The notes beneath the pieces are model-generated. The model had not been told where the DNA came from. It made no database searches and worked only from the letters and a program-made list of their open reading frames with translations. Below are positions 3,338-26,604 of a stretch of 64,000 bases of DNA, piece after piece. Made by a program: the position numbers and the translations under genes. Source of the DNA: Kondoa subrosea (Eukaryota); contig BCIN01000006.1 in assembly GCA_039545335.1 (NCBI GenBank), forward strand, positions 62,001 to 126,000, read 5' to 3'. Each line of letters starts with the position of its first letter. The stretch's first letter is position 1.

Positions 3338-4902
3338 ATGGCTCTATCAGTCTACGATCAGCCATGAGCTTTCACTTTTGATCCTTTAGCTAAAACACCT
3401 ATTACTGAAACGGAAGCGCATTGCATACTTACCAGCAGTCCAAATGCTTTGAAACTGGTACAACTGGCCCAATCTGACCCCGCTGGAGTGCCTTTTATGG
3501 CTCACGTGCTCTTACAAAGAGGCTTTCTTGCCGCTGCTCAGAGAATGTTCAGAAATGCGCGTAAGTCACCCTTAAACGAGATACGCACTTGGGAGGCTGA
3601 ATTCGAGATACAGAGAAACGCCGATTCGCAGTAGATCAGGTTCCGCAAGTCTCTTTCGATCCGTCAATCGCTACGGATCTATTGAAGCATACTAGCGAAG
3701 AACTCGACCAATTCTCGTCAATCTGGGCCAACTTGAACAGACGATTTGTTGCACTACAGTACCTTGTAACCACCCAAATATCTCAGCAGAAAAGAGAACA
3801 ATACACAGCAATGCTTCAAGCTGATTTCGCTAGGATCCGTAACATGCTCAAGAAGCTGAATGACTTTATGGCGGAAGCGAATTGGCTTATTGGAGCAAAT
3901 GATTCCATTCAAGAAGGCTTTATGAATCCATCAGTACCGTTAGAAAGCAGAATTCAAGCCAATGTCCCATATTCTGCTAGTTCTGTTACTCCAAGTGAAT
4001 CGTCATCTGCCGAAAATGCTGCTGTTGCTCGCAGAGCACGCATTAGAGCTTGCTTACCGGCAGCTGGAGCGATCAATGCGTCTCAAGTACAGCGCTGTGA
4101 GCCAATTACCAAGCCTCCTATTTTGCATTTGCTCATTGATCAGACAGATGCAGACGGAACTATTGGTTATCCGCTCAATGTACAGCCATCAAGGGCCAGA
4201 GATAGCTCAAGCGCACCATCAGCTTCAAACGCTTCATCTTCTGCATCCTCTAGCTACTCTACAGCTGTTCAGATAGATCCAAGACAAGTCCCAATTCAGA
4301 ATTACTCGCAGTCTCAACCTTCCTTTGGCGCTCCTGCTCCTTCTACAAATGCGTATGCTGCTGTTCCTTCAACCAAAGCTCCCTCAGCTTCTCGTCCCGC
4401 AACTCAATCCAGTCAACAAGCTCGAGCAGCAGCTGAAAAGCCTTCTAGAAGTCCAACTCGATCTGGACCAAATCATCAGCCTATCGCTTCAAGTCCTCTT
4501 CGCAACGTTTCTTCCGCCCCTGTCTCTCCACGAAGCAAGTCAACTTCTCCTTCTGCTTCTGACCCAACTTTCGGTTTGCCTAATCAAGCTCCTTCTTCCG
4601 TTTCCGTACCTAGCAGCCCAAGCAAAAGCCCAAGCAAAAGACCAAGGCAATCAAGGGAATTTGACGAGGCTGGAAATTCCTTGATTGTTAGCAACGGAAG
4701 AGAAAGCGAACAAGATTCTTTAGAATTCTTCCGCAGTGGCACCCGTCTGCCTGTCAGCAGTATCTTTTCGAATCCTGGCGTTGTTGGAAACGGTGGTGGA
4801 TCAAAGAAGATTAAGATGACAGTAGACGATTTGGAACTGGAAGATGGAGAATGTGAAGATGATGATGAGATCATGTTCACTGGTTACAAAGCCAAAGCGT
4901 AA
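3338..4902 (+). CDS. Hypothetical protein: helical N-terminal part plus long Ser/Pro-rich disordered tail; start uncertain
   Basis: A GTAAGT...ACAG intron near 3561-3613 joins the 3449 ORF to the 406-aa ORF 3682-4902. The upstream ATG at 3338 is in frame but followed by TGA at 3365-3367; the next in-frame ATG is near 3497. Confidence 0.6.
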
Positions 4903-5489
4903 GGTGCATTACTCGAACTAATATTGCCGTTCTTATATTCAATATGATACAGGTCAAATATGCCATCGGTGCCAAGTTGAAGCATGAAAGATGGATAGAT
5001 AGGGGTATTCGGGCATTCAAGTGATCATTTATGTTGTTTCTGTGGGAAGTAAGATACCCTGTACATGGCATGGACTCGACAAGTATGTGAAACATTGGTA
5101 TCTAGCATTTGTGATAGCAGTATATATAGTATCCTACATTTTTGATTTGTATCTGGTTATTACTGAACAAAGCTTAAGGTATCTCTTTGATGATTGCTAT
5201 TGTCCTTTCTTGTGTCTTGACATCCTAACACCATTATTTGCGAAGACCGAACTGCAACATGAGCCATAAGATTACCATTTCTTTCTGTCTATCTGATCTT
5301 GAAGGATACAACTTGGTAAATAATTGAAACAAGCTCTAAGTGAACTGCAGGTAGCTTCAAACCAGCAAAGCATACACAAAGCCTCACCTTATCACTTCAA
5401 GCGAATACCATATTCCTTCAGTAAGCTCAATGTAGCTTATTCCTTCGCTTCGATTCTGCATCGCAAGTCTCTTCGCCTTCTTTCACTAC

Positions 5490-6839
5490 TCAATCATCAA
5501 ACAAGCTCATTCCAGCACCACCAAAATCCAGTTGCGCCAATTCATCTTTTATCGCTTGTCTAGCCAATGCATCCAATTCCTTAATCAGCATATTTGAGAT
5601 CTTCTGCTCTAGATCTATCAGCTCTGACTTGCAGTATCAACAACATATTACTGACCTTTAGCTTTGAATCACTCTTTGAAATGACTTCCACCAAAGCTGG
5701 ACTTAGAGCAGAAGAATTACTACTTGGATGTTGACCAGGTACAGCTAATGAATTTCCAGTTGATAGATTTGCAGAAGGTAAAGAAGTAGAAGAAGGTGAA
5801 GGAGCGTTTGATACAGAGGTGGAAGTGGAAGTCGCTAGTAGAGGTAAAGACAGACCGCCCAAGTATGTAAGGATTTTTGAGTAGATTTCGATGAGGATGT
5901 CGCAGAGCGAGAAGAGGCATTGAAAGTAATCTAGTTCGAAAGGCTGTGAAATAATGAGCAGAGCAAGTGATGAGGCGGAAGCAACTGACTATGTTCGGCC
6001 AGAAGAGAGAAGTCTGATCATCATTGCTATCTCGACCTGGTTCTGAGCCTGGATTACTGTTTCCAGTCGTGCTAGATCTAGCACGACCGCCTTTCGTCGA
6101 TCGAAGCAGTGATTTCTGCACTTTCGAATTAGCTTACAACTACAAAAGATATGTACCGACTGACCATTCTAGGTCTGAGCAAGTTCTCATCCGATAATTG
6201 ATCATACTCTTGACTCGTCAATAGCAACGCCTTGAGGAAATCATGCGGATTGGCAATATCCAACAATGGACCCAAGCTCAATCCTAGAACCATGAATCTA
6301 GTTGCTCTTCTTTGTAAAGCGATACTCGTGAATTGACCATTCATTCCGATTGCTGCTGAAGAAGAAGGAACGGCCATGTTTGGATTAGCTAGAGCAGGTT
6401 GATAGTAGGCTTCCAATTCTTGCTTTGACAATCTGATGGTGTTAAACCAATGTACTTGATCACCTTGATGAACCGCTTTCAGGTAATTCCAGCTCTGCAA
6501 TCTGCGTGATACAGCATTGCGTTGATTGTCGTGAGCTATTTGTAAAGATTGTGAAGGTAGATTAGGTAAAGAGGAAGCATTGCCATTCAAGCTTGACAAT
6601 AAGGCTGGTGTGCTAAGGCCTGATGATTCAAGTAAAGGGGTCCCAGGTAGCGCTTCGTGCGGTACGTCCAGATCAGAAGTAGAAGACATGGTATTACTTC
6701 TATTCAAGGCAGAAGAGAGCAGATTGCTTGATTTCCTTCGCGAAGGTCCACTGGGTCTTGATGATCCATCCATGGCGAAGTGAGATCTACGAGCGCTTGT
6801 AGGTGAAGGTGATGGTGAAAGAGAAGAATCTCTGCTCAT
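5490..6839 (-). CDS. Uncharacterised fungal protein (4 exons)
   Basis: ORF 6129-6839 (SWNYLKAVHQG..HWFNTIRL..RATRFMVLGLSLGPLLD) splices via GTCAG..AG introns to PFELDYFQCLFSLCDILIEIYSKI and KISNMLIKELDALARQAIKDEL, ending at TGA 5490-5492. Confidence 0.75.
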
Positions 6840-7031: not shown

Positions 7032-9909
7032 ATGTCTCAAGCTGGTGATATAGCCATCAATGCACTGGACGGATTACCGCATTTTAGAGCAACATCAAAG
7101 CGCTCAGCAGAACCACAAGCAAATGGCAATGGGCCGCGAAAGAAACCTCGAGCAAGACCTACCTTATCATGCTCCGAATGTGTGAGACGGCGACAGAAAT
7201 GCAGTCGTACAGTTCCATGCATCACCTGCGTATCCAGGGGATGTCCGGAGAAGTGTCATATTGACGAGCTGGAGCAGGATCAGCAGCCTCCGAACCCTTT
7301 CATTACCCATGAAGTACATGAAGCTTTGGCGGCAAGAGTTAGGTTACTGGAAGAGCGACTCGACAGTATGAACAGGATACCTGATGCGCAAATAAAGCAA
7401 CAGAACTCTACAGCCGATTTCGATGGGCTGGCCGATCCATTGCTCGCTTCACCTCGAGTCGCTTCCCCAATACGTACTCATACTGAAGCCAGGCTTGAAG
7501 ATAGTCAAGGACGTGAGCAAGCTGCCTTTTCACTGGAATCTCTCGCTTTGGCAGCAGCTGTAGCTACTCCATCCCCAAATCCGGCAGTTGCCCAAAATTC
7601 ATCTTCTCGTCTGCGACCTCTCTCAGCATTTGTACAACGAAGAGAAGCAAATATCAGATCAGCAGAAGTCGAACTGTGCTTGGCGCTCGTTCCAGACTGG
7701 ACTTTCGCGAAAGAGCTAGTACAAGCGTACTTTGATAGAGCAGCTTGGGAGAATCATGTGAGCTTTGTACACTTATTTTCCTTAATTGCATAGCTCATTC
7801 CCATCGCAGGTCATTGAACAAACGACTTTTGAGATTGCCTTCAATCAATTCCAGCACAAAATGCTCGCAGATCCCTCTACAGAAGACATCGATTTCGCTT
7901 GGTTGGCATTATATTTCATGATCCTAGCTTCTGCTCTCTTCTTCTCGCCTACCATGTGGGATCTACGACAACAGCAGAGATCTGAATTAATCAACAGCTG
8001 GCTTTTGGGCGCACATAGAGCTATGGCTTTGAGCAACTATAAAGACGCACCTTCTGTCTCTGCTATTCAAGCTATTCTACTTAGTACGTTCTGCAGGCAA
8101 GTGATTATAGCAAAGCTAAAACAGAAGTAAAATCAGTGCCTCATTTCCTTATGCACTGTGAGCCCGTTGATTGTAATGCAGAACAAGGTTTCCTGCTGAC
8201 AGACTGGATCAGCTGGGCAAATACAAAGATGGGCGATCTGTCTCTCCTCTGGTTTAAGAATGGCACATCTACTGGATCTACACGAAGCAACGCCAAGGCA
8301 CGAGTAGGTTCTTTGATTTCAAAGCATCTATTCGTCTGGTCTCACTTGGTTTCGTAGAATCACTCAAGAAGTAGAGACCGGTCGAAGATTGTACAGCGCT
8401 CTGATTAATGCGGAAATCAACTTCACTGGCAGATGGCTCGGTTTGGGTTTTTCTGAATTCGCTTTTTGTGCATTACTTTTCCATCGCTAAAACTAAATTC
8501 ATAAACTCATTCGCTTTTCTTCCAGCCTCAACTCATAACATACCTATGAATTGCGATAATCTCAACGCACTTCGATCTTTGTCGATGGACATTCCTACAG
8601 TCGCCTCTTTCCAAGTCATTATGGCCCGTATATCGGAAAAAGATGTGGAGTGGAGGCGTACAGGAGGACAAGCTGGCGGAAAGAACGACTATGAGATAGT
8701 TCTCAAGTTCGAGTAAGTTCCGCTACTGCAGCTTTAATTCAGCTTTGATTTTGTCATTGTAACAGCCGGGTCATTGAAAAGCTCAGAGATGACTTACCTC
8801 TTTACTTCCGGTGAAGCCTTTCATCGTGCATGTACAATCGGCAAGCTGATTACAGGACATAGCATTGAGCATTCTGAAGATCTAGCAGTCCAAGCCTTGA
8901 CCAAAGATCGATCTTATCTTATCTGGCAACGGTGTTTGATCCTGATGGCTTTGAACAACAGGCTGATGCGGTCGCATCGACACTGGCTGACAGACGGCTA
9001 CGTAAATATTTCTTGTGGTATATCAACACTGAAGCTGATGGATATATGTAGCGCAACGCAAAGTACTCGTTTTCCACCGACTTATGTCTGAAAGTGAGGC
9101 AGTCCGTGATCTAATGATCACCGTAGCTGAATTCACCTTATTTAAGGCGGCGAAGGCGAATCTGGCGTGTCAACGAGCTCTTCGAAATTCTTTTGGTGCA
9201 GCCGATCTAGTAAGTCAGACTAACGATTGTATATATAGTTGCTGAGACTCTACTCTAGCTTTACCACAGCATCTTATGTTCTTTATCCAGCGCGATTGTT
9301 CTGCTTGTGGACAATTTTGTACGCATCACAACATTGGATGCGCCAGCTTCACCGCAGCTAGATCTACAGCGTTTGGAGGTTCTCGATGTCCTGGCGTCAT
9401 TTCGGCTGCTGCCAACACCTAGCACAATGGCCGATTCCGCTGCGAACGTTTTGATCCGGTTATTAGAGGAAGAGGCGGATCGACGACAGAAGAGGAACAT
9501 CCCATGTCCACCGAACCTGCAAATCCCCGCCTCTGGCGGAACTTTACAAGCAGAGAATAGATCTCTTCTTGAAGTCATTCGGACAATCTTTTCTCATTCT
9601 CAATTTCCTTCCCTCTCAAAAGTATCAGCGCCTTCTGTGTGCTTCGATCATCTACCTACCACGGACAAATCACCGACATTCTATCCCAACCTGTTCACAA
9701 ATCCGGAAATGCCTTCTGGTATTAGTGACGACTTCTTGCAGCAATTTGGAACTGCACAAGACTTTCCCCTCGGTCAGAGCTTCACTTATGGCTCGATGCC
9801 TGATGACGCAGGTCCCGGACTTGATTTTCAAAGTTTGGGTATGCATGTTGTTGCTGCCCCTTGCATGAACGCTGAGCAATTCAACCAAACAGGTTTCGGA
9901 TTCTTTTAA
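7032..9909 (+). CDS. Zn(II)2Cys6 transcription factor with fungal-specific middle homology region
   Basis: CSECVRRRQKCSRTVPCITCVSRGCPEKC matches C-x2-C-x6-C-x5-C-x2-C-x6-C. It is followed by a coiled coil (LAARVRLLEERL), MHR-type exons (ELVQAYFDRAAW; WLALYFMILASAL) and an acidic C-terminus ending 9909. Confidence 0.93.
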
Positions 9910-9980
9910 GGTCACAAAGAATAGGTGTATAACAACGAATTGGAAATGATGTAGGCAGATACAGGATGTAATTATCAAAA

Positions 9981-11850
9981 TTAATGCCCAAACCCATTTA
10001 TCCCATTCGTTCTGCTTGCTTCCTTTTTCGGAACATCACTTGACATCGCTTGTATGGCTGATAGGTGCTTCGTGAAACCAGCCTGCAGGTCATCCCATTT
10101 GGTCTCGTCCTCGTCTTGAAATCCTAAATTAGTAGTGCAAGTCTGCCTAATGAGAGCAGCTTACCTATCAATACACCGCTACGCTGTAGTGACCAATCTG
10201 TCAGGGTCATTTGTACTCCTATATGTAACATAAATCCTGGACAGTAGATGTTAACAGCAACTTTGCATGACTTGAAAGTAAAACTTACCAATCGTGTCTT
10301 CACCGATTCGAATACTTTCCAACGGACTTTCCGTAGCTTGAAGGAAAGTCTCATAAGTCTCGCCATGACTCATCATACCGTTGGTGAATTGCAAGGAGCC
10401 AGGAGCCATGCCATGAAAGTTAGATCCGCGTATAACACCTAAGAGTTCGGTGGACATATTGCGATGATAGTAAGGTGGACTATATTTCTTGCATCAGCTC
10501 AAGTAGGGAGTGGTCAATAAACATTGAGTAAGCGTACCGAAATGTATTGGTACTGGTGCACCATCGCGGTGTAAAGGCGCAGAAGTCGGTCAAGCTCTTG
10601 CCGGGAATTTTGGATTTTGCGGTGAGGACGCAATAGATAGTAGGATCTACTTGCTCCTTGTCCGAAGTACCCAAGTTAACGAACTTCTCCAGGTCATACT
10701 TGTATGGACAATAGCTGTGGATTCAATTGGCACGGTTGGTGCCGCAAGCATGCAGAACTTACTTGCCATGCCAAGCAACGACGTCGAAAGGTGTATGATT
10801 CTGTTTGCAGGAGAAGAAGCGTCCACAAAGCTTGTACACAACTGGAGAAACAGCTCGAGCTGAGTTCGCAGCAGAGAGACGAGTCGAACTTACTTTCCCA
10901 CTCCGTCTCGTCCACATCGAAGCTTGCCAGAGGACTTTCAAAGTCCCTTTGTAATGCCATTCCATTAGTACCAACAGGTCCAAGTTCGCTCAGCTCATAA
11001 TGTTGACCGAAAAGTTCCTGGATATCTGTAAGGCAATCGTGTGAGCATACAATTCTTCGGATCAAGAGCGGAATGACAAAACCAACATCCGCGAACAGGT
11101 CCATCGGGTAGAAGCACTCTGAAGCGAATACCTCTGGGCACAACACAGATTTCGCCTGGCTTGACCATTAGCTTGCCGAGTTCCGTTTGAATGTCCAGTC
11201 GGCCTAGTTGTGGCAAAATGAGCATGTCGCCATCATTACTGCAGAAGGCTCGATTTTGCATCGATGCATTGGCGGTATAGATATGTATTGCTAAACCCTC
11301 ATGTTGCATGGAGTCGCCATTTCCAGCAATAGTCTTGATGCCTTGTACGAAATCAGTCGAGCCTGAATCTTCGGGCAGCAAGAAAGGTTGCCAAGATGTT
11401 TCCGATGCGACAACCGAGACATATGGATTGCAAGTGTTAAAGTTGGATTCGACATCGGCATTGACAGGCATAGCCTTGAGAGGCTTGTGGGCGACAGATG
11501 GTCGAATGCTGCAATAGAGTCAGTGTGAAAGTGGCAAAGTGTAAGAAGCACGAACCGATACATCCAAACATTCTGCATCTCGCTTCGTGAACAGACAAAG
11601 GCAGATCCATTGATTTGTTCAGGATACAGATCATAGGCTAATTTCTGAGGTGTATTTCTAGCCAAAGGTAAAACTCCTGGTCTGCATTTGTAGATTAACG
11701 ACGAATAGCAACCTCTTTCATGACTCACAGAGCTTCAGAAGCGAACCGATTTCCAAATCCAACTTGGTAAGAATACGAGTCTTGAGGTGTGGCAGCAGTT
11801 GCAAACGGTCCAGAAGCGTTTGCGCCAATGAATTTCTTTTGCCCTTTCAT
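9981..11850 (-). CDS. Homogentisate 1,2-dioxygenase-family protein (divergent paralog)
   Basis: Spliced protein has YQVGFGNRFASEAL, LYPEQINGSAF, NDGDMLILPQLG, PFDVVAWHGNY, FRPPYYHRNMSTE and MSHGE. Fe ligands His/Glu/His are present. ATG 11850, TAA 9981-9983. Confidence 0.92.
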
Positions 11851-11954
11851 CTTCAAGCAGTTCTGTCACTGACTGGAGACGACTCTGAGGAGACAACAGG
11901 TCTCTTGGCAACTGAGGAGCATATCGTAAGTCCGAAGCCAACCAAATGATCGAT

Positions 11955-12008
11955 GATAAGATAGGAATTCCGAAATTCAGCCCTATTCGAGGAGCCGCGC
12001 ATGATAAG
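11955..12008. promoter_or_regulatory. GATAAG sites plus CCGAAAT in the bidirectional dioxygenase/permease promoter
   Basis: GATAAG at 11955 and 12003; CCGAAAT at 11970. Confidence 0.55.
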
Positions 12009-12122: not shown

Positions 12123-14166
12123 ATGTCTGACTTGGAAAAGGCTGATAGCATCTCGGATGCTGCACACACACATGTCCTTGCATCTCAAGACACAAGCGAA
12201 GATATCGTTTTGCCTTTGAAGTGGCATCGTAAGCTGCTCATCTCTTTCTCTCCCGCATAGCTAATTCATCAAATCCTCAGAGCGCCTAGCAAGGCTTGGT
12301 GTAGAAGCACACGGTATTACACCTGTACCGGAAGAAGCCAGAACAGATACTGGTTACTTCAAGCTGTTCACTTTGGTAAGATAACATCCTTCCTTCGCTT
12401 GTAATGAACACATCTGATTATGTACACAGTGGTTCAGCTTGAGTACCAATCTGTTGCCCTTGGTGACTGGTCATCTTTCGACTGCCGTCTACGGACTGTC
12501 ACTTCGCGATGCTTCTTGTGAGTCCAGATCTTTGCTTGCAGACAGCATCGACCTGATAAGCATCTTGCAATTTAGTGACAATTATCTTCTTCACCATACT
12601 ATGTACTATCCCTCCAGCTTGTACGTTGAATACTTACCATCTGTGGTGCGATGCCTCAAAGTTTGCTTCTTCAGGGGCAACAACTCTTGGACCAAAGCAT
12701 GGCATGCGCCAAATGATCTTCTCTAGATATTCCTTCGGATTGGTTGGTGTCGCTGTTCCGGCTGTGTTGAATGCTCTCACATTGTTTGGAGTAAGTGACT
12801 TCTGATCGGTAGGAGGTAATGTAGCTAAAGAACCCAATAGTGGGGAGTTGTTTCTTGCATCCTTGCTGGACAGACACTTGCTACTGTCTCTGATGGAAGC
12901 TTGAGCTGGACTGTCGGTATCGTGTAAGATCGTTCCCTGTCAGTCTTGTCGACGCTTATTTCCCGAACGAGAACAGCATTGTCGCCGTCCTCGCTATGGT
13001 CGTTGCTTTCTTCGGTTATCGAGTGCTTCATATTCTCGAACAAGCCTCGGTCGTTTGCGCTCTTATTGCAATCCTTACACTTTGCGCAGCTGGTGGATCG
13101 CATTTGGCCGATCGGGCAGTCACCGAACAAGCAACCTCTTATCCTGTTCTATCCTTTGGTGGTATCTTGGCTGGCTTCTGTGAGTAGAGATACATACAAT
13201 TGCGACCGTTCTTGCCGATTAATGTCTTGGTCATACAGTGATCACTTGGACTGCAATTGCATCAGACTATACGACTTACTACGTATATGATGCTCCATCT
13301 CAGCGCCTCTTTTGGTATCAATACCTTGGTCTTGGTATTCCGACAACGCTCTTCATGATTCTGGGTGCAGCAATTGGGTCGGCCATCACTACATCCGAAT
13401 CATGGACAGCAGGCTACGAAGCGAATGGAATTCCTGGGGTACTTCGAGGTTAGTATCTTGGTTTGACAGTTCTACATTCACAAGTTGAAGACATTCTCTG
13501 ACAGAAATGCTGCGTGGCGCTGGAGGCTGGGGCTCATTCTGCACTATCCTGCTAGCGCTATCCCTATTGGGCAATCTATCAGCAACCATATACTCCCTTG
13601 GCTTCTCGGTACAAATTGCAATTCCTCCTCTTCGAAAAATACCTCGATACGTCTTCATTGTCTTCGCCAGCGCTTGCGTCATCCCTGTAGCGATTGTTGG
13701 TGCCAAGAGATTCTTTGTTGCTCTAGAATCATTCGTGAGTGAACTATCGCTTCAAAAGAATTTTCAGATGCTCATTATGCTGCCCCATCCAGCTCGGTGT
13801 CGTCGGATACTGGAGTGCAGGCTACGTAGCTATTGTAGCAATGGAGCACGTTGTGTTCCGCAGAAACCGCATCGCCAACTACGATCTTTCCGCTTGGAAC
13901 ACGGCTTCCAGTCTCACTAGTGGCATCCCAGCCGTTGCAGCATTCATCTGCTCTTGGGGTCTAATCGTTCCTGTGCGTACTTTTGTACCCTCGTCTTACT
14001 TCTTTCCTCTGATATTTGCTATTGTTAGTCTATGGCCGCTGTTTGGTTCGAAGGACCCATCGGAGGTGCAATCGGCGATTTTGGCTTCGAGGCTGGGGCC
14101 ATCATTTCTGCTCTGATGTATCTTCCTTTCCGATGGATCGAAATCAATAAGTTTGGGCGAAAGTGA
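12123..14166 (+). CDS. NCS1 purine-cytosine permease family transporter (Fcy2/Tpn1-like)
   Basis: RLGVEAHGITPVPEEARTD, GPKHGMRQMIFSRYSFG, WTAIASDYTTY and GDFGFEAG motifs; many hydrophobic segments across GT-AG-bounded exons; stop TGA 14164-14166. Confidence 0.9.
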
Positions 14167-14408
14167 TGTGCGAATACAGGGGTTTCTTCTGTTGGGTTTC
14201 TAATGTCGGGTTTAGATATGTTACTTAGAAGAATTGATGTAGACTGTATTGCAAAGAGCTCTTGTTGTATTTCCTCCTTTGCTGCTTTTGGTCATGAATG
14301 AAAGATCCTACTTCGCTGCCTTTGTTTGCTGCCTTTGTTTGAGGGTCAGGATCAAAGATCATCGAAACTTGTGACCAATGCAATTGTTTCATTGCATGTC
14401 AAATGCCT

Positions 14409-16684
14409 CTATTTTTTTAGGGACTTAGTAAATCTTTCTTCTCTTCGTAAGCGCCAGCTCATTCCTCTCTTCCACAGTATGTAAAGGACCGGACTGAATG
14501 CTACCAGAAGCTGAAAGTCCGCTCAGAAGAATGCCAGATGTGCTCGTGGACTTCACTCACTAGTCCCCATATTGTAAATGTCCAACCTGGGCCAAGTTTC
14601 CTAATCATCAAATCGATAACAGCTAAAAGAAAGCGTGAGTAACAACCAGGGTCCTGTCACTGAAACGGACCCAGACCAACAGCTCCCATGACACAGCGAA
14701 CCAGATTCACAGCAGCGGAAGATGTAGCGCTAGCTTGGGGATATAGATCGATGACAAGGACGTTGGTGACTGTCTGTAAGCAGAAGCCAGCCATACCAAT
14801 GCTGGGTCAGGTTGATCAGCGTCTTCGACTTCAATTCAAGCATCATCGCACTTACATGAATTGAAGAATTAGAGGTCCAGCTATATTCGTATGTGCTTTC
14901 ATACACCAGCCGTTGCCAATAAGAGCTCCAACATAAAGTGGAAGAAGCCAAAAACAGCAGCGAAGCCGGGCATGCTGTGCTTGCAAATTCAGGGAAAAGA
15001 TGAGACAACCTTTTGCCAAATCCTCACCTCTATAGGAAACCCTCGAAGATCATTTGCATCTTTTGGATTGAATCGAGCTTTCATCAATATCTCAAAATCT
15101 TCGCCTGTTATCATTGCTCTTTTCCGCATTTGCTTTCGCTTCACGATTTGAAAATCGCGATCGACTACTCGGCTCATAATGATAGATCCTAGCAATAATG
15201 TCTTCATCACAGATCGAGTGAAAAGCAACTCCATAAATACCTGCCAAGGCTCCGCTACCTATTGCGAGAAAACATAGACCAATTTCCGTTTGACTATACC
15301 CATAGATATCGTCCAGCAGGGCAGACAAAGATCCAGTAACGCAATAGTACGCAGTGTAAATGATGCCATTATAGAAGAGAAGCATAGCCATATCGAGCTC
15401 AAAAAGCATCAGCAAAGGCTTCAGAGGATGGATGTTGCGCAATCTTTTATCGCTTTTGGCCGGTACTCTTGTGTCACTGGCTTTGTTCGATATTGCTTCC
15501 TGTATTAGGCGCCACAGAGGTTTGTGTATTGGGGAAACAGGAAGCTGTCCTTGTAATCAGATCCAGTGCAACAAAGCTACCTAATGCTAGCTTACGGAGC
15601 CATTTCCTGCTATTGAGCGCAGCGTTTCAGGTAAGAAGAGTAGTATCGCTATAATACATGGTCCAGCCAAAATTGAGAGAAACCAGAAGACTATCAGACG
15701 GATCGAAAGTCAAACGGTGCTGATACTTTCAGGAGGATCACAAACTCCAATGCCATCCCAAATGACCGCTGATCAAACCACCGAACTGATCTTCGCATGA
15801 GCATCTTTTCTGATCCAAAATTGACATTATCAACGCACTAGAGGACCGATTGCTGGTCCAAGCTGGACTCCCATTTGGAAGCAAGATACAAAGAGTCCTC
15901 TTTCATCCCTATGACATTCAAAAAAGCTTGCCCGTGAGCGAATGGAGTGGCAACTGAAGCGGTTCTTGACATACGGCGTGGATATATCAGCTATCGTCCC
16001 TGCTCCCAATGCAATTGTTGAAGCCGAACCGGTAGCTTGAAAGATCCGAAGAAGCATAAGAGCCCAATATACGTTGACCAGACCGACTAAGCCATATGAG
16101 AAGGCATAAACTCGAGGGAACAGGAATTATTCAAGAGGACTCAACTTACGGCCGATGTTGCTGGCCAGGTATATGCTGAGGGTGACAAGATCTATATGAT
16201 TGTTGAGTGGGATCATAACGAGACACATGTCAGCCTTACATATAACTCTTCTGCCATACACATCCGCGACTATACAGGTTCTCCATAAGAGAATCCGTAT
16301 CAAGGGAATTTTGCCTTACGACTTCCCCATAATGAAGGACTGACGCCTTGGAAGACCAGGTAGATAGTGACTGTGAGATTGATTTGCTCCGTTGTTCTGC
16401 CTAGTGAGGATGCGATTTCCGGTATTGCAGGAAAGTACTGAGAGATGAAGTACAGTGAGCATACATTCACTTTGCTCTAGCAAAGAACTGACAATGTTGC
16501 TATTGAGTGGAGAGAAGAAACCAGCGACAGAAATCAATGCAACTAAGAACCGCTTCTCCTTCGCAGAGTAGATTGTATACGGCGGCTGCACAGAGGACGG
16601 CTTTTTGGCGATGGCAGAACCTTCCAGGTCGGATTCTGCTCTGATACTTGGGCCATTCACGGTTTGGACCTCATTCTTCGACAT
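14409..16684 (-). CDS. MFS DHA1 drug:H+ antiporter (Qdr/Aqr1-like)
   Basis: PYTIYSAKEKRFLVALISVAGFFSPLNSNI, ADVYGRR (motif A), LLRIFQATGSASTIALGAGTIADI, GPAIGP, LPETLRSIAGNGS. ATG 16684, TAG 14409-14411. Confidence 0.9.
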
Positions 16685-16963: not shown

Positions 16964-18151
16964 TTACTCATACAATGCGTGCTGCAACGCTTTGAAAGCA
17001 TCCTTCAACATCCGCCTACTGAGTTCCGATATCGCAGGTAAAAGCATAAGGGAATGCGTTCCTCCTTCATAGGTTCTCAGATCAACTTGTATCATGTTCC
17101 CCTTCAGTCGATCGGCATAGGCAATAGCTTCATCTCGGAGTATATCGAGTTCTCCAGCAGCGATGTAAGCTGGTGCCACGTTTTGCATGAGCTGATCTGG
17201 TGCCAGTAGAGGCGAAGCTTGCCAGTTTACCGCATCTTCTGGGTTCGGCAAATACTTTTCTCGATACCATGTCATTCGATCAGGAGTGAGCCAAGCTAGC
17301 AGTAAGATAAGGTCAGATCGAGTAGACGAGATAGAAGCTTTGCTTACGAGCTGTTGCAGCATTGCCCTTCCAATGAGTTTCGACAGTCGCTGTGTTGTCC
17401 AAAACAGGCAGAAAGAGCATTTGCAGAGAAAGATGTATAGGCGGATGCAATTGAGCTGCTTTCAGTGCAACTACAGCAGCTAGATTGCCGCCTCTGAGTG
17501 ACACAAATTTAGCTGACAGTCTTGGTAGGCAAGCTTGTTCTGGCTTACGCCGATAATCCACCCACAGCAACCTTGCGCTTGTCAGTCTTCAATTGAGCTG
17601 ATCCTTCACTGTGTATCCAAAACAGCACTTCCATTGCATCGTCTACTGGTGCAGGATAAGGGTTCTCGGGTGATAGACGATAATCGACTGATATCACGAC
17701 ACATGGTGTGTCTATCTAATCATGAGGAGAGATTCAGACGCTGAAAGAAGGACTTACCTCTACATGCTCTGCTACAGAATGAAGCTTCATCTTCAGGTTT
17801 TGACAAAGTCCACTGAAAAGCTGAAAGTTAGCCTACTTCACAGAAAGTCAGATTACCACTCACGCCTCCTCCGTGAAAGTATAGCAACACAGGCCAACCG
17901 AATTCAGGACGGTCACCTTTCGGTATCCAACATAGCGCTCGACATTGCGAGAAGACGATCTCACGCTCTTCGCCTACTTCAACAGCTGGATCGTTTCCTT
18001 GCATCGGCGGAAACTTCCTGAGTTCTGGCGACCAAGGAACCAATTGACTTGGGACTTTGTTTTGTAAGAATCTTTCATGAAAGTCGCGATAGTCGGGATC
18101 AATTCTGGACAGTACTGCTGGATGCAAAAGCTGATGGATAGGCATTGCCAT
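16964..18151 (-). CDS. Alpha/beta hydrolase, hormone-sensitive-lipase (GDXG) family
   Basis: LLYFHGGGW oxyanion motif, VDYRLSPENPYP, GGLSAGGNLA nucleophile elbow (spliced), GELDILRDE (Asp) and YEGGTH (His). No signal peptide. Confidence 0.9.
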
Positions 18152-18244: not shown

Positions 18245-18302
18245 GTAGTCTTGGAAGAGCAGATATATCCATGTTTGCTGCTCTATACCATCCTTCCTCA
18301 TC

Positions 18303-20527
18303 ATGGAGTCTTCCGTTCTTGCGCTCCTTGCTTTATTGGCTCTTGTTTCTGTTGGTTTCTTGCTTGCAACCTTCAAGAAGCCTCCGCATCCACTGCCGCC
18401 TTCTCCTGGAGGCGCTCTACCTTTCCTGGGTCATCTAAATGTCGTCCCTTCAGATTCGCCAGAGGTCAGCCCGGATGCTCGTTGAGAAGTATGAGTGATT
18501 GCTGAAATTATGCTTTGGCAGGTATACTATGAGAAGATTGGCAAAGAGATGAAGACAGATGTGCTGTACTTCAACATCCTTGGTCAACCGATGGTTGTCC
18601 TGAATAGCGTTCAGGCAGCTGTTGACCTACTTGAGTAAGGGTGTCGTTGATCATCACTAGTGCTTTGGGCTGATCCTATCTTCCCAGTACGCGAGGATCC
18701 AACTATGCAGATAGACCAGGCTTCGACCTGCTGAAGACTCTCGGATTCCAAGTACGCTTCTAGCTGGAGCCACACATACGGGAAGCGATCTGATGTTCTT
18801 CCCAGAATACTCTGACCTTCCTTCGTGTTGGTCCACATTTCCAGCTACATCGTAAAACCCTTCAGACCTACTTCACAAAACCATCTATCGTCGGCTTTCG
18901 AGACATACAGACTACAGAAGCGAGAGCTTTAGTGAAGAATCTGTTACAGTTCCCTGCCGAGTTCAACCATTACATCCGGAGAGCTGCAACAAGCGTCGTC
19001 ATGACCGTTTCCTTCGGACATACAGTCAAATCAGACGAAGATCCTTACATACAAATCGCAAATGACACAGCCTACGCCCTAGTGGGTGTTTCTCGACTCT
19101 CTCAATTCTTCAACTTACGCAGATACCTTAGGGTAACAGTGGAGCGCCTGCGGGCACTCTGTAAGTCTTTGTGGTAATAACCTACACGCGTTTGCTCAAA
19201 TCCTAAATCCAGGATTGACTTCTTCCCCGCAAGTAAGCTGCTTGTACCAGGACTCAGCGACTAAATTGCTCACATGAATGTACTAGTCGGGAAGTTGCCC
19301 AACTGGTTGATGTTCGATAAACATGTCCGCTTTGCAAGAAAATGGCGATGGGCGATGAGGAAACTCTTCGACGTTGTGCGTTCCGTTGGCTCATACACAC
19401 TCAAAAACCCTTGATTGATGATTCTATATGTAGCCTTTCGCACAAGTCAGAGATCAAATGCGGCATGGAACAGCTGAACCTTCTTTCCTACACACTTTGC
19501 TAGAAAGGCATGCTGCGGAAACTCAAAAGGGCAAACACATTGATTTCACATTGGAAGACATCAAGGGTGCTGCTGGAGGTACGGAAACACCGCCCTCGAT
19601 CTTCTTGCTATCGGCTCAATATGTGAAATAGCCGTATACGTTGCTGGACAGGAGTAAGTTGGCAAAGTATGGTCTGCCGGTCTGATCTTGATGATGACAA
19701 AGTACTACACATGCTACAATGATGGTCTGCTTGTTAAACCTTACGCTCAACCCAGAAGTGGTCAAAAAGGCTCAAGCAGAAATTGATGCTGTGGTTGGTA
19801 CAGATCGCCTAGTACGGCTTTTCTCACACATTCGTCTACTCAAGCTAAAAATCTCGGTGTAGCCTGAATTCAGCGACCGAGAATACATGCCATACAGTAA
19901 CTGGATTATCGCCGAAACGCTTCGTTATTACCCAGTGTCGCCCCTTGGTGTACCACACAAATCGATTGAAGACGACGTATACAAGGGAATGTTCATTCCA
20001 AAAGGGTCCTACATCTATGCCAATGCTCTGTACGTGCATATCATTATCCGCATGGATATTGTAATAACCAATCATAGGGCAATGGCTCACGATGAGAACG
20101 TCTATAAAGACCCGATGCACTTCAATCCTCAGAGATTCGCGTCTGTTGCAGAGGGAGGAAACTGCGAACCTCTGCCTTCAGGTCAATTTGGTTTTGGCAG
20201 GCGAGTATGTGTAGGAAGGCATCTAGCGGAAGCAGTAAGCTCCTGATGGAGCGTTATCACACCAATTCTCATTCGCCGATACAGACCATCTGGATCTTCT
20301 TGGTGTCGATTCTAGCAGTTTTGGATGTGAAGAAAGCTATCGATGAGGACGGGAACGAGATTACTCCAGAAATAGCATTTACTCCAGGCCTATCCAGGTG
20401 AGGCTGACCCTTGAGAGCTTTCCCAGATCAAGCTGATGTGCCCGAAAGTCATCCGAAGAAGTTTGGTTGTAGGCTGGTCCCGCGATCTAAGCATGCAGAA
20501 GAGATGCTTTTACAGGCTAGCTTATAA
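18303..20527 (+). CDS. Membrane-anchored cytochrome P450 (OrdA/CYP64-clan-like)
   Basis: N-terminal TM anchor plus PPSP hinge, I-helix AGQ(D)TT, K-helix ETLR, FNPQRF, heme motif FGFGRRVCVG; stop TAA 20525-20527. Confidence 0.93.
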
Positions 20528-20639
20528 ATCTCGGGAAGTCCTCTAAAGCAGCTGTAATATATGCATATCATACCGCGGTCGCTCGAGATTTCGGATTTCC
20601 GATTCAATCTCCACATTCTGCTTATTCGACCTGCTTATC
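20528..20639. promoter_or_regulatory. Two AT(C/T)TCGG sites plus CTTATC upstream of the amidohydrolase
   Basis: ATCTCGG at 20528, ATTTCGG at 20588, CTTATC at 20634. Confidence 0.5.
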
Positions 20640-20690: not shown

Positions 20691-21620
20691 ATGGCTATCA
20701 CTCATGCAGAACAAGAGAGTTATCTTCAATCAGGCTTCGGGAACAAGATGGGATGGGGGGATCGGCCAGCTCTGCTATTGATCGATGTCTGCAAAGCATA
20801 CTGGCAGCAAGGATCCCCTCTAGATCTGTCAGCTAATACGGAAGCTGTGAGAGCACCGGATGAAATGAGGAAATTGGTCGCTGCAGCAAGAGCTGGTCAA
20901 TGTCCTGTATTGCATTCTCAAGTGTCGTATACCTCTCCTACTATGCAAGACGCCGGACTATTTTGGGTCGGTGATGTAGTCTTCAACTGCCTTAGATCTG
21001 ACGGGTGGTGAACAGAGAAAGAGCAAAGTCTTGGATGTATGGCAAAAAGGCGACAAGCGAGGCTTAGCAGAACCAATGCCTGGGCTTGCTCCGGAAGGTT
21101 TGTTTCCGCTATTGTGTCGCTGTTTCATCGTAGTTGCTGACATTCCGTCAAGGCTCTGACCCAGTTGTAATCAAGAAGTATGCAAGCGCTTTCTTCGGCA
21201 GTGAGTCTTTGACGAAGCTTGCCGTTGCTGTTCTTGGACAAATTCTGTATAGCTGATCTTGCTACAACCTTACACGTACTTGATGTCGAGTAAGCTATCT
21301 TTATGGAGTTCTTACTTGCAACAGAGCGGAACCCATTCTTTTGCCAGTACTGTCGTTCTGTGCGGCGTATCTACCTCAGGATGTGTCCGAGCGACAACTT
21401 TGGATGCTATGCAGAGTGGATTTCGACCCATGGTAGTTGGTGCAGCATGCGGGGATAGATCACCTGAAATACAGAATGCCAATCTTTTCGAGTGAGTGAA
21501 CATAGTCCGAGGGATACTACTAGCTTCCAACTGATGTGCAACAGCTTGAACAGCAAATATGCTGATGTAGTTTCAACGGAAGAAGCGTGCGAGAAATTGA
21601 GAGCTGGATGGAAGCATTGA
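20691..21620 (+). CDS. Isochorismatase-family cysteine amidohydrolase, maleamate amidohydrolase (NicF)-like
   Basis: Spliced protein: MGWGDRPALLLIDV (Asp), KKYASAFFGT (Lys), LCGVSTSGCVRAT (Cys), ACGDRS..ANLFDLNSKYADVV. Five GT-AG introns; TGA 21618-21620. Confidence 0.88.
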
Positions 21621-23879: not shown

Positions 23880-24221
23880 ATCTCAGATTGCCAAAGGTAT
23901 ACTCCAGATGGATGTTGCAAGTCAAGCCAGAGATTTATGCATTTTCATGTCTTGACCGTGGACTGTGACTGCTATGCTCGATACGACGCTGCTTGCGACG
24001 ACTGCAGCCTGGCTACCAAGGCAAAGCCCTGAGATTCAAAGTCTGCGCTTACCCACTTGCGTCTGCCCTAAATTAGTGCCTCGCTCTCTTCGTTTAGCCT
24101 GTACTGGGCACTGCTTTCTCTTGTTCTTCCCAAACAGACAAGCTCTTGCTCTGACTCTCGATCTCTGTTGTGTCCATCTATCTTTGTGGAACAGCAGCTT
24201 TGATCAAAGATTGACTGCGTC

Positions 24222-26604
24222 ATGATCTCATTCGGTCTTGTGCTTTTGGCAAGTCTAGCAACTGCAACGCCTCTGGTATCAAGAGAGCAAACTATGGACT
24301 ACAATCAAGCTCCTCCGAACCTATCTACTCTACCTGCCAAATCGCTCTTTACCAAATGGCGACCTAAAGCGCACTTTCTTGCTCCCTCAGGTCATGTGGT
24401 CCGCACTGTTCTTCTAATCAGATTGAAACAATCTTACAATCACAATAGGGCGATCCAATGGGAGCTTTCGTTGATCCTTCGACCGGTTTATTCCACCAAG
24501 GTTATCTCTATACTCCTTTCAACCAAACTTCAGGCAATTCAGCAGCAGCAGCAACCACTTCCAATCTAGTGACTTGGAAAGATATTTCTTCCCCAGATCC
24601 AGCATTCATCAAATCAGGCGGTATCAATGATCCATTGGCAGTTTTCGACGGAACAGTCATTCCAAAAGGTTACGCTGGTTTACCTACATTAATCTATACG
24701 GCCGTTTCTTTCTTACCTATTTCTTGGACTTTACCTTATATTCCTGGATCAGAAGCTCAAGCAATAGCGGTATCGAGTGATAATGGAAAGAACTTCACGA
24801 AATTGGAAGGAGGTCCTGTTTTACCTTCTGCACCTTTTGGATTGGATGTAACTGGTTGGAGGGATCCTTATGTTTTCCAAAATAGTCAATTCGATAAATT
24901 GTTGAACAGTTCAGAGGGTGTTTGGTATGGTAAGTTTCTTCCTCTTTCCTTTTCTTTACCTGTATGTCGAAATCTGAAATTGCGTTGATTGCAGCAAGTG
25001 TTAGTGGAGGAGTACATGATGTCGGACCCAGTCTCTTCTTGTATCGACAATATGATGCGAATTTCACTACATGGGAATACTTGGGTGAGTTGGTATCAGT
25101 CTTTGAAAACTCAAGAAGCTGATTTGTGAATTAGGTCAATGGTGGAAAGAATCAGGTATAGTACATCTTCTACTGGCTCGTTGATGATCTGATCATTTTT
25201 ACAGCCAATTCTACATGGGGAGATGGAATTTGGGCTGGAAGATGGGGATTCGTAAGCCCTACCCGTTTTGGCTATCTTCTCACAATATGCTGAGACGTAA
25301 ATCAAGAACTTTGAAGTTGACAATGTCTTTGGCTTGACCGACGAAGGCGATAGTGAAGATGGAACACTCTTTACGTAAGTCATTTCCCCGATATCTGGCT
25401 ACCTAGGACTGAGTGAAGCACAGCCTCGTTGGCACAGAAGGAGGCGGATATGGCTATCCTGGAGGTCGTGCTCAACTTTGGGCATCAGGCGATTTGGTCA
25501 CAACAAGCAATTCTTCTGATCCGATCAATTTCGAAGTCAATATGGCAGGTATACTAGATTGGGGCAAAAGCGCTTACGCGGCAGCTGGGAAACTTGTTCC
25601 TTCTTCTTCTGAAGCATCAAAAGCTAGTGGTGCTCCAGATCGATATATCGCTGCTCAGTGGATTACTGAGGACTTCTTTGGATCTAATCCATTCCCTAGT
25701 AAGAGAAATTTTGACGAGTACTACAACGGAATCTGAGAGTGATCTTAGTTGAACAACAAGGCTGGGACGGTCAATTAACTTTACCGAGAGAGTACACCCG
25801 CAAGATAATCTATAATGTGGTCAACAATGAAGCGGTGCAAGAAAAAGGCTCATGGCGTATTATTTCCCAAGACAACGATACAAACACGGTCGATATAATC
25901 ACTCTCGGTCAAGTTCCAGCAAGAGAAGTGGTCGCTGCTTTGATCAATACAACAGCGGTATATGAAGAAGATCGTACCATCAACAGCACGGATCAAGCTA
26001 TTGTACCGTTGTCGAATCAAGTCAAGTCAAATACTTTCATGCTCTTTGCTTCTCTTTCATTTCCTTCTGAAGCTCGCGATTCGGAAGATTTGAAAGCTGG
26101 ATTCCGTATTTTGAGCTCGCAATATGAATCGACTACAATCTATTACCGCGAGTCTTCTTTCCCAGTATTTGATTCATAGATCCGCTCATCTCCGCTTCCC
26201 GATGATAGAGTTCAGCAACGAATCTCTCATAGTTGACCGAAGCAATTCAAGTGCCGCTGCATTAACAACTAAAGGTTTCGATACTCGTAATGAAGCTGGT
26301 CGATTACGCTTATGGAATATACATCATGATGGCTATGTGGCGATGGAAACACTGGATCTTAAGATCGTAGTGGATCATTCAGTTGTGGAAATATACGCAA
26401 ACGATCGATTCGTTCTTTCTACACTTGTTTTGTGCGGTCTTTTCTACGTAGGATAGGATCCTGCTCATATGCTTCCTGTTTAGCCCTTGGTATGAAAGCT
26501 CAAAAGGCATCGAGTATTTCCATGAAGGATCGATTGACGTCAAATTCAGCAATGTAACGATTCATGAAGGATTATTCGACGCTTGGCCAGAACGCGAGCG
26601 ATGA
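24222..26604 (+). CDS. Secreted GH32 beta-fructofuranosidase (invertase)
   Basis: Signal peptide MISFGLVLLASLATA; WRPKAHF..HV|GDPMG (nucleophile), VFDG, WRDP, NFEV (acid/base); C-terminal beta-sandwich VVDHSVVEIYANDRF; ends AWPERER* at 26604. Confidence 0.92.

Follow-up and report, generated by a model that had tools for sequence, protein, structure and literature searches.

A Gln-type paralogue of homogentisate 1,2-dioxygenase in a putative catabolic gene cluster of Kondoa subrosea

The window analysed here is a stretch of 64,000 nucleotides from Kondoa subrosea (contig BCIN01000006.1; C6:62001-126000). It consists of intron-rich fungal DNA and belongs to a genome of 18.9 Mb in 27 contigs. 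On the minus strand, it carries a gene of the homogentisate 1,2-dioxygenase (HGD) family, the subject of this study, whose predicted structure and active-site positions are as follows.

11850-9981, minus strand: HGD-family dioxygenase gene, Gln-type (predicted gene model, Pfam, alignments with HGD structures in the PDB)
11850-11729, 11681-11556, 11508-11087, 11025-10894, 10841-10763, 10714-10538, 10479-10289, 10236-10165 and 10123-9981, minus strand: exons 1 to 9 of the dioxygenase (model)
10651-10653, minus strand: Gln315, at the position of human His292 (alignment to human HGD)
10464-10466, minus strand: predicted Fe ligand His358, corresponding to human His335 (alignment)
10446-10448, minus strand: predicted Fe ligand Glu364, corresponding to human Glu341 (alignment)
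10365-10367, minus strand: predicted Fe ligand His391, corresponding to human His371 (alignment)
10383-10385, minus strand: Thr385, at the position of human His365 (alignment)
10365-10466, minus strand: Fe triad region, including the shortened lid and Thr385 (alignment)
10220-10234, minus strand: FMLHI strand in exon 8, with His421 where canonical HGDs and His-type paralogues have Glu

The predicted frame is open across nine exons and encodes 487 residues, and the eight predicted introns are all of the GT-AG type, with lengths of 41-61 nucleotides; no RNA run was listed over 9900-12000. Five exon pieces scored above the Pfam cut-offs for HgmA_N (PF20510) and HgmA_C (PF04209); the presence of both domains and of the 2-His-1-Glu Fe(II) triad assigns the protein to the HGD structural family (IPR005708). 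It is 43-44% identical to two annotated bacterial hmgA proteins. Residues were mapped by alignment to human HGD (PDB 1ey2; the published residue numbers are obtained by subtracting 26 from those of the chain) and to the Pseudomonas putida chains. A sequence-only reading of this DNA had described, at 10270..10680 (exons 6 and 7), an HGD paralogue with an intact iron site and a remodelled substrate pocket. The motifs it quoted are present on the minus strand, and the canonical motifs with which it compared them agree with the human and Pseudomonas putida chains. The triad is intact (H358, E364 and H391 on His335, Glu341 and His371), Gln315 aligns with the active-site His292, and Thr385 replaces the second His, in a lid that has lost its Tyr segment, all as had been claimed. 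The FMLHI strand also exists in the gene, but it lies 36-50 nucleotides beyond that range, in exon 8, and its frame opens only once intron 7 is spliced out.

The canonical features missing from the window protein are, therefore, His292, Tyr350 in the Y-[DE]-x-K lid, and His365; the equivalents of Pro295, Pro332 and Tyr333 are retained. The lid, from E364 to H391, is three residues shorter than that of human HGD, and the change is predicted to be an in-frame deletion of three residues, with an ambiguous exact placement. A hidden intron in the lid was ruled out, since the segment is reduced in length, rather than extended, compared with the relatives. According to the accessible text of two sources, His292 is hydrogen-bonded to the distal ring hydroxyl of homogentisate, and cleavage occurs between the carbon bearing the Fe-bound hydroxyl and its substituted neighbour (bioRxiv 10.64898/2026.06.02.729205; PMC4019311). 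As for the lid Tyr, the accessible part of a review links a Tyr-to-Phe change in the lid to the lost homogentisate turnover of PcMHQD2 (PMC11634970). A predicted fold is available for the relative P0028 (61% identical) rather than for the window protein itself: its model has a pLDDT of 74.5 and its top Foldseek matches are 1ey2 and 4aq2, with a poor AlphaFold model near the Gln (residues 305-313, pLDDT <50). The ESM Atlas returned only generic HGD clusters.

The replaced residues do not vary among bacterial HGDs in the way that would make them uninformative. Among the GTDB loci kept as a reference (the best 80 of 444), 80/80 have His292 as well as a Y-[DE]-x-K lid, and 78/80 also show the His365 pattern. 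For the fungal proteins, the N-terminal exon, which is blind to the pocket, was used as a query and gave a list of 120 matches, 19 of which are of the Gln-type, defined here by Gln at 292, Tyr three residues after D-P, Glu after the last His-Gly, and His in the FMxH strand. Two more searches seeded with Gln-type sequences (top 120 each) enriched this type, so that the 226 parsed proteins comprise 115 with Gln, 108 with His and 3 others at this position. With the tally restricted to HRN-bearing proteins of 430-560 residues, the Gln-type is represented by 112 sequences and the His-type by 100. His365 is absent from all of these fungal paralogues (112/112 and 100/100, respectively; 212/212 in total), with Glu in its place in 188. 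The Fe ligands are retained in 111-112 of the 112 Gln-type sequences. A clear difference between the two types is seen in the FxxE strand, where Glu is replaced in 107/112 Gln-type sequences (His in 95, Gln in 12) and kept in 100/100 His-type ones, and at position 321, which is Tyr in 107/112 of the former and Phe in 98/100 of the latter. The lid aromatic is present in 110/112 Gln-type sequences (Trp in 57, Tyr in 53).

The window protein carries the subgroup diagnostics Q315, Y321, E393 and H421, and is devoid of the full-length aromatic lid of the subgroup. Its HRN-to-HG spacing is 29, as against 31-33 in 111/112 Gln-type sequences, and it differs at 19 of the 172 columns that are at least 90% conserved in the subgroup, as compared with 3 for the median member; comparable divergence occurs only in a few divergent or incomplete entries. 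By these comparisons, His292 to Gln together with FES to FHI is characteristic of a subgroup that is widespread in Dikarya (112 sequences), the loss of His365 is shared by all of these fungal paralogues, and the predicted lid deletion and Thr385 are private to the window copy. The remodelled pocket is thus upheld for the Gln and FMxH traits, which belong to the subgroup, but not in full: the loss of His365 is general, and because the loss of the lid Tyr is private and 19/172 columns are broken, some of the remodelling could reflect drift or decay.

Some other members of the family were encountered in these searches. The proteins P0231 (Cerrena), P0233 (Panus) and P0235 (Aspergillus multicolor) keep His292 and have rebuilt lids, and so the HGD-like family appears to have been retooled several times. 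P0246, P0249, P0263, P0264, P0267, P0272, P0278 and P0291, which are representatives of 50% clusters with about 950-1020 residues, have about 550 extra N-terminal residues ahead of an HGD-like half, the lid of which has no Tyr, and form a fused divergent family.

Trees were built by FastTree and a quick IQ-TREE run from 72 and 64 sequences, chosen from the matches, after removal of the trait columns. In all three trees, the window protein was placed only among Gln-type sequences, in agreement with a separate fungal subgroup, the point that the sequence-only reading had proposed to check by phylogeny. The fungal non-canonical group was split from the canonical HGDs with a support of 0.999 (FastTree) and 76.7 (SH-aLRT, quick IQ-TREE), and the Gln-type group is sister to a His-type fungal group that includes Agaricus 200921 and Polyporales genes. 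The closest proteins (59-62% identical) are P0028 and those of the agaricomycetes Bondarzewia, Plicaturopsis and Fistulina, and the other named members are from ascomycetes. Both types occur in Plicaturopsis, as a single gene each (P0101 and P0153), which agrees with an old duplication. The terminal branch of the window protein (0.44-0.57) is longer than those of its basidiomycete relatives (0.11-0.27). A bacterial origin was not supported, as 0/80 of the GTDB loci (the best 80 of 444) are of the Gln-type. A second, long-branched Gln lineage was also noted (P0394, P0232, P0245, P0262, P0289 and P0302; Diaporthe ampelina is named), with changes adjoining the first Fe ligand. Its placement is unstable: P0394 (Diaporthe) and P0232 fall outside the Gln clade supported at 0.945, and inside those at 66.5 and 0.36.

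By two Pfam searches, the genome contains two HGD-family loci and no more. The dioxygenase of the window is thus not the sole HGD-family gene there, contrary to one of the circumstances under which the sequence-only reading would have been refuted. The second gene is as follows.

C10:225663-228114 (L005:3664-6115), plus strand: second HGD-family gene, His-type, 502 residues, 18 introns (model)

This copy on contig C10 keeps His292 and the lid Tyr, has Glu for His365, and is surrounded by housekeeping genes. It groups in the trees with Atractiella and Microbotryomycetes proteins, a hint that the host belongs to Pucciniomycotina. On these residues and this grouping, it is the common basidiomycete His-type, and not a second, canonical hmgA of the kind that the sequence-only reading had proposed to look for. 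A recent duplication from this copy was ruled out as the source of the window gene by the identity of 47% and by a single shared intron position (8 versus 18 introns). No match to HPPD was obtained in the genome with two models, in an exon-wise search that does not prove absence. The FAH gene lies on contig C9, outside the cluster described below. The genome thus seems to have neither a canonical HmgA nor an HPPD match, and yet FAH is present. According to the accessible text on FAMeDB, the homogentisate pathway is not widely distributed among the Basidiomycota.

Six neighbouring genes lie within 15 kb of the dioxygenase gene.

7032-9909, plus strand: Zn2Cys6 transcription-factor gene, six-Cys pattern from 7170 (found by pattern; exons not modelled, ends approximate)
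12123-14170, plus strand: NCS1 nucleobase:cation permease, about 515-530 residues when spliced, divergent from the dioxygenase gene (model; 3′ end approximate)
14660-16684, minus strand: MFS transporter, drug:H+ antiporter-like (model; 3′ end approximate)
16964-18151, minus strand: HSL-family alpha/beta hydrolase (Abhydrolase_3, PF07859) with HGGG and GxSAG motifs (second exon model approximate)
18271-20530, plus strand: cytochrome P450 with ExxR and heme-Cys motifs (ends approximate)
20691-21620, plus strand: isochorismatase-family cysteine amidohydrolase, 220 residues, Asp-Lys-Cys, of the NicF / N-carbamoylsarcosine amidase type

Approximate models of the five non-regulator neighbours gave open frames after splicing, with the catalytic motifs preserved in the three that encode enzymes. 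Two exon pieces of the Zn2Cys6 gene that were tried gave no Pfam match. The association of these genes was examined in a metagenome scan, from which 80 of 568 confirmed loci were kept; seven are of the Gln-type, six of them distinct (L014 repeats L013). The open reading frames of the window were searched against these six loci, two of them long, by tblastn (E<1e-3). L013 and L017 (21.7 kb), which come from two distant fungi, contain all five non-regulator partners, L015 (9 kb) contains three, L011 the P450, L012 the NCS1 permease, and L016 (2.7 kb) none. No partner was found at the same threshold in the His-type regions (0/3), namely, L018, L024 and a 30-kb stretch surrounding the C10 copy. 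At the protein level, L013, L015 and L017 match best to Gln proteins that are ascomycete-like. The P450 gene is head-to-head with the dioxygenase gene in L011, L013, L015 and L017, and the NCS1 gene occupies that place in the window; therefore, the content of the cluster has been kept and its order changed. Searches back into this genome returned the window genes: the L013 amidase matches only the window gene, the L017 P450 has it as the best of 22 matches, and the L013 NCS1 permease as the best of 10. The NCS1 orthologues in L013 and L017 match PF02133 and TIGR00800, and the L017 MFS orthologue matches PF07690 and the Bcr/CflA models below the cut-offs. A regulator gene of fungal type is found in the cluster at L015 and L017; no tblastn match was obtained between these and the window regulator, so that orthology is not supported. 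In the PDB, the C-terminal exon of the amidase matched 3ot4/3uao at the top and 4l07 second, which we take to be the maleamate amidase of Pseudomonas putida S16. The structures 3ot4 and 3uao are those of NicF (PMC5806882).

Other genes were seen beside these clusters. In L013, the hydrolase and the P450 are separated by a gene for a cytochrome P450 reductase (4705-6648, plus strand; FAD_binding_1, flavodoxin, NAD_binding_1), and an RTA1-like gene is near the cluster in L013 (18397-19194, minus strand) and L017 (18391-18921, plus strand). In the window, a glycoside hydrolase family 32 gene (invertase-like; 24204-24988, plus strand) with a signal-peptide-like start is located 2.6 kb past the amidase; it had no match in the Gln-type loci.

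The best reading of the gene is that its product would be a ring-cleaving Fe(II) dioxygenase with an HGD fold, a Gln-type Dikarya paralogue in a co-located catabolic module that does not serve tyrosine breakdown. Homogentisate breakdown is disfavoured because the pocket residues are changed, HPPD has no match in the exon-wise search, and no FAH or GST-type partner was seen in the cluster; homogentisate is very probably not the substrate. Because the cluster is conserved beside the Gln-type genes, another substrate can be argued for, as the sequence-only reading had done; what that substrate is, we infer only. Our leading proposal, advanced tentatively and at somewhat less than even confidence, is that the window copy is active on an N-heteroaromatic compound, with a ring of the 5-hydroxy-2-pyridone type being cleaved into a maleamate-like route. 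We infer every reaction, the order of the steps, and the substrate of this scheme. The NCS1 permease would import a small N-heteroaromatic compound, and the P450 would hydroxylate it to a hydroquinone equivalent of the 5-hydroxy-2-pyridone type. Candidates are 2,5-dihydroxypyridine, its 6-methyl analogue and 5-hydroxy-2-oxo-pyrimidine, all of which fit the same gene set. The ring hydroxyl would bind Fe, and Gln315, in place of His292, would read the distal lactam C=O/N-H; general protein chemistry suggests that a Gln at 292 has no role as a base, yet is able to pair with a lactam. Cleavage next to the Fe-bound hydroxyl would yield N-formyl- or N-acetyl-maleamate, the HSL-family hydrolase would take off the acyl group, and the NicF-like amidase would release ammonia and maleate. 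Formamidases of the HSL family exist, such as kynurenine formamidase. In the case of 2,5-dihydroxypyridine, the pyridone form would offer the lactam, and C5-C6 cleavage would give N-formylmaleamate, which is described as the product of NicX in the accessible text of PMC7910607.

Several observations weigh against this proposal. No match to the maleate isomerase family (PF01177) was found in the genome, with the control positive in 10/14 genomes, and the known fungal route for 2,5-dihydroxypyridine consists, as far as the accessible text of PMC9304392 goes, of hydroxylation and reduction, not ring cleavage. The amidase reaches no NCBIfam equivalog cut-off, its N-terminal exon matches N-carbamoylsarcosine amidohydrolases first (26st, 1nba), and NicF specificity is unproven. 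The PDB matches of the hydrolase, taken from the L017 orthologue, are esterases and lipases, and a deformylase role for this HSL-family enzyme is putative. The subgroup mostly retains the lid aromatic, the window copy being among its most divergent members, and the trees differ in how well they support one Gln clade (0.945, 66.5 and 0.36). Finally, the test of the cluster comprises six loci, with two long ones. A wider proposal, to which we give less credence still, is that an undescribed oxidative ring-cleavage pathway for pyridines or pyrimidines exists in Ascomycota and Basidiomycota, composed of a P450, a His-to-Gln enzyme of the HGD fold, an HSL deformylase and a NicF-like amidase, and convergent on maleamate-type products. 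If this wider proposal is true, it would give the first HGD-family enzyme that cleaves an N-heterocycle within the literature searched, and the shortened lid of the window copy would point to a move towards a small ring without substituents.

The same module may act, instead, on an N-substituted benzenoid hydroquinone (an amino- or acylamino-hydroquinone, for example, in the detoxification of aminophenol or benzoxazolinone). In this case, cleavage between the OH-bearing and N-bearing carbons would give a maleylacetate amide or imide, to be stripped by the hydrolase and the amidase. This would parallel MhdA and OmeA, as MhdA is reported, in the accessible text of PMC8336404, to turn methoxyhydroquinone into a methyl ester handled by the neighbouring esterase. 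Two hydrolases and a P450 suit such a substrate equally well, and genes of the Fe-ADH family, which includes maleylacetate reductases, occur elsewhere in the genome. However, the conserved importer is a nucleobase-type NCS1 permease, no reductase was seen among the open reading frames scanned in L013 and L017, and a phenolic distal hydroxyl gives no cause to swap His292; we consider this alternative unlikely. A methoxyhydroquinone-type dioxygenase for lignin monomers, like MhdA or PcMHQD1/2, is a poorer candidate again. The sister relationship to the His-type group with Agaricus 200921 and the Polyporales genes agrees with it, as does the FAMeDB orthology table, which scores MhdA in genera that bear the Gln-type (for example, Ophiocordyceps australis and Venturia). 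Nevertheless, OmeA is a type-B carboxylesterase (IPR002018), while the hydrolase of the cluster belongs to Abhydrolase_3 (PF07859); the neighbours of mhdA mentioned in the accessible text of PMC8336404 are omeA and an MFS gene; a His-type copy is already present in the genome; the species with MhdA homologues (Aspergillus niger, A. fumigatus, A. oryzae, Fusarium graminearum and Cochliobolus) are not among the named matches listed in the Gln-seeded searches; and a Fusarium oxysporum protein is of the His-type.

Another conceivable, though improbable, reading is a functional subgroup with an impaired or decaying member in the window, the lid deletion and Thr385 representing damage. The 19/172 altered columns, as compared with 3-4 in the basidiomycete proteins P0028, P0121 and P0101, the short HRN-to-HG spacing, and the long terminal branch would all be expected from decay. 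On the other hand, the frame is open across nine exons with GT-AG introns, the Fe ligands and Gln315, Tyr321, Glu393 and His421 are kept, and five neighbours also splice to open frames, the three enzymes with their catalytic motifs; moreover, the sample contains no close relative, and distance alone may account for part of the divergence. The least probable of these alternatives, which we regard as very remote, is that the gene encodes a true homogentisate 1,2-dioxygenase that has diverged in sequence. The triad and the predicted fold are the same, the databases label the matches as HGD, and the relative P0028 even passes the cut-off of the hmgA equivalog TIGR01015 (516.5 versus 510.75). Against this, His292, His365 and Tyr350 are all missing, no HPPD was found by the exon-wise search, the cluster contains no fahA or maiA, and the Tyr-to-Phe lid change is tied to the loss of homogentisate turnover in PcMHQD2 in the accessible part of PMC11634970.

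An HGD paralogue with another substrate is an already known kind of enzyme, and what is apparently unstudied is the Gln-type subgroup in a conserved catabolic cluster. In its accessible text, a 2025 survey names MhdA and PcMHQD1/2 as the only characterised fungal cases, mentions an ancient duplication in Pezizomycotina, and describes the fungal extradiol-type dioxygenases as insufficiently characterised (PMC12420386). Only six entries fall under K00451 in the table of FAMeDB, a curated database from 2026 (PMC13094099): two are HmgA, one is an Ustilago gene, and the others are MhdA, PcHGD1 and PcHGD2. No study of the Gln-type subgroup or its cluster was found in the literature searched, which covered a minority of subscription papers. 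Databases name these proteins HGD, and a Gln-type relative scores above the cut-off of the hmgA equivalog; the breakdown of tyrosine by fungi is therefore probably over-called. The conserved cluster and the one-residue diagnostic provide a short, testable list of substrates, although the window copy is, judging from its alignment, unusually divergent and so not the best sole member to assay. If the N-heteroaromatic proposal holds, it would add a route by which fungi handle compounds of the pyridine type, and would serve as a naturally occurring test of the part played by His292, a residue that matters to the HGD mechanism and to alkaptonuria.

Compared with canonical HGD/HmgA (EC 1.13.11.5; human 1ey2/1eyb, Pseudomonas putida 3zds/4aq2/4aq6), the window protein has the HgmA_N and HgmA_C architecture, predicted to be bicupin, and the triad in common. 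It differs in His292 to Gln, His365 to Thr, FMFES to FMLHI, and a lid that lacks Tyr350 and is three residues shorter, and its neighbours are not fahA, maiA or hppD. The solved paralogue PDB 9pz4 (496 residues, fungal-type, with motifs resembling Obba rivulosa P0234) is the best PDB match of both the window exons and the subgroup profile. It is likewise without His365 and the lid Tyr, but it retains His292 and the Glu in the FxxE strand; no relevant paper on 9PZ4 was found in the literature searched.

MhdA and PcMHQD1/2 (PcHGD1/2) are also fungal paralogues of the HGD fold and are described, in the accessible text on them, as acting on a hydroquinone without an acetate chain. A substrate without the acetate side chain, which the sequence-only reading had thought plausible, is therefore already on record for HGD-like enzymes. 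As in the window cluster, a hydrolase gene stands next to mhdA, while no P450, NCS1 or amidase gene is reported beside it in the accessible text of PMC8336404. PcMHQD1/2 are probably of the His-type, as are all Polyporales matches with a readable motif. MhdA indirectly looks His-type as well, because the species bearing its homologues are absent from the named matches listed in the Gln-seeded searches (top 120 each), an ascomycete His-type branch with Fusarium exists, and the esterase family differs; the FAMeDB orthology counts leave room for a Gln-type MhdA. A dioxygenase of the gallate pathway was considered as a further HGD-like enzyme and rejected, being DUF3500 in the accessible text of PMC10832562. 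The main text of a transcriptome paper on nicotine in A. oryzae mentions neither homogentisate nor isochorismatase.

The nicotinate pathway of A. nidulans (hxn) is likewise a clustered fungal catabolism and passes through 2,5-dihydroxypyridine. It differs from the proposed scheme in its hydroxylation, reduction and hydrolytic ring opening by other families, with no HGD-fold enzyme reported in the accessible text (PMC9304392). The bacterial maleamate pathway, NicX-NicD-NicF(-NicE) of Pseudomonas putida and relatives, would share its logic with the window cluster, namely, a ring-cleaving dioxygenase, an alpha/beta hydrolase and an isochorismatase-family amidase, and the C-terminal exon of the window amidase is nearest to NicF in the PDB. 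The differences are that entry in the window would be by a P450 and not by flavin or molybdenum enzymes, that no maleate isomerase family match accompanies it, and that the fold of NicX is unrelated, its site being His-His-Ser-Asp and its substrate not bound to Fe, according to the accessible text of PMC7910607, whereas the window enzyme is of the HGD fold.

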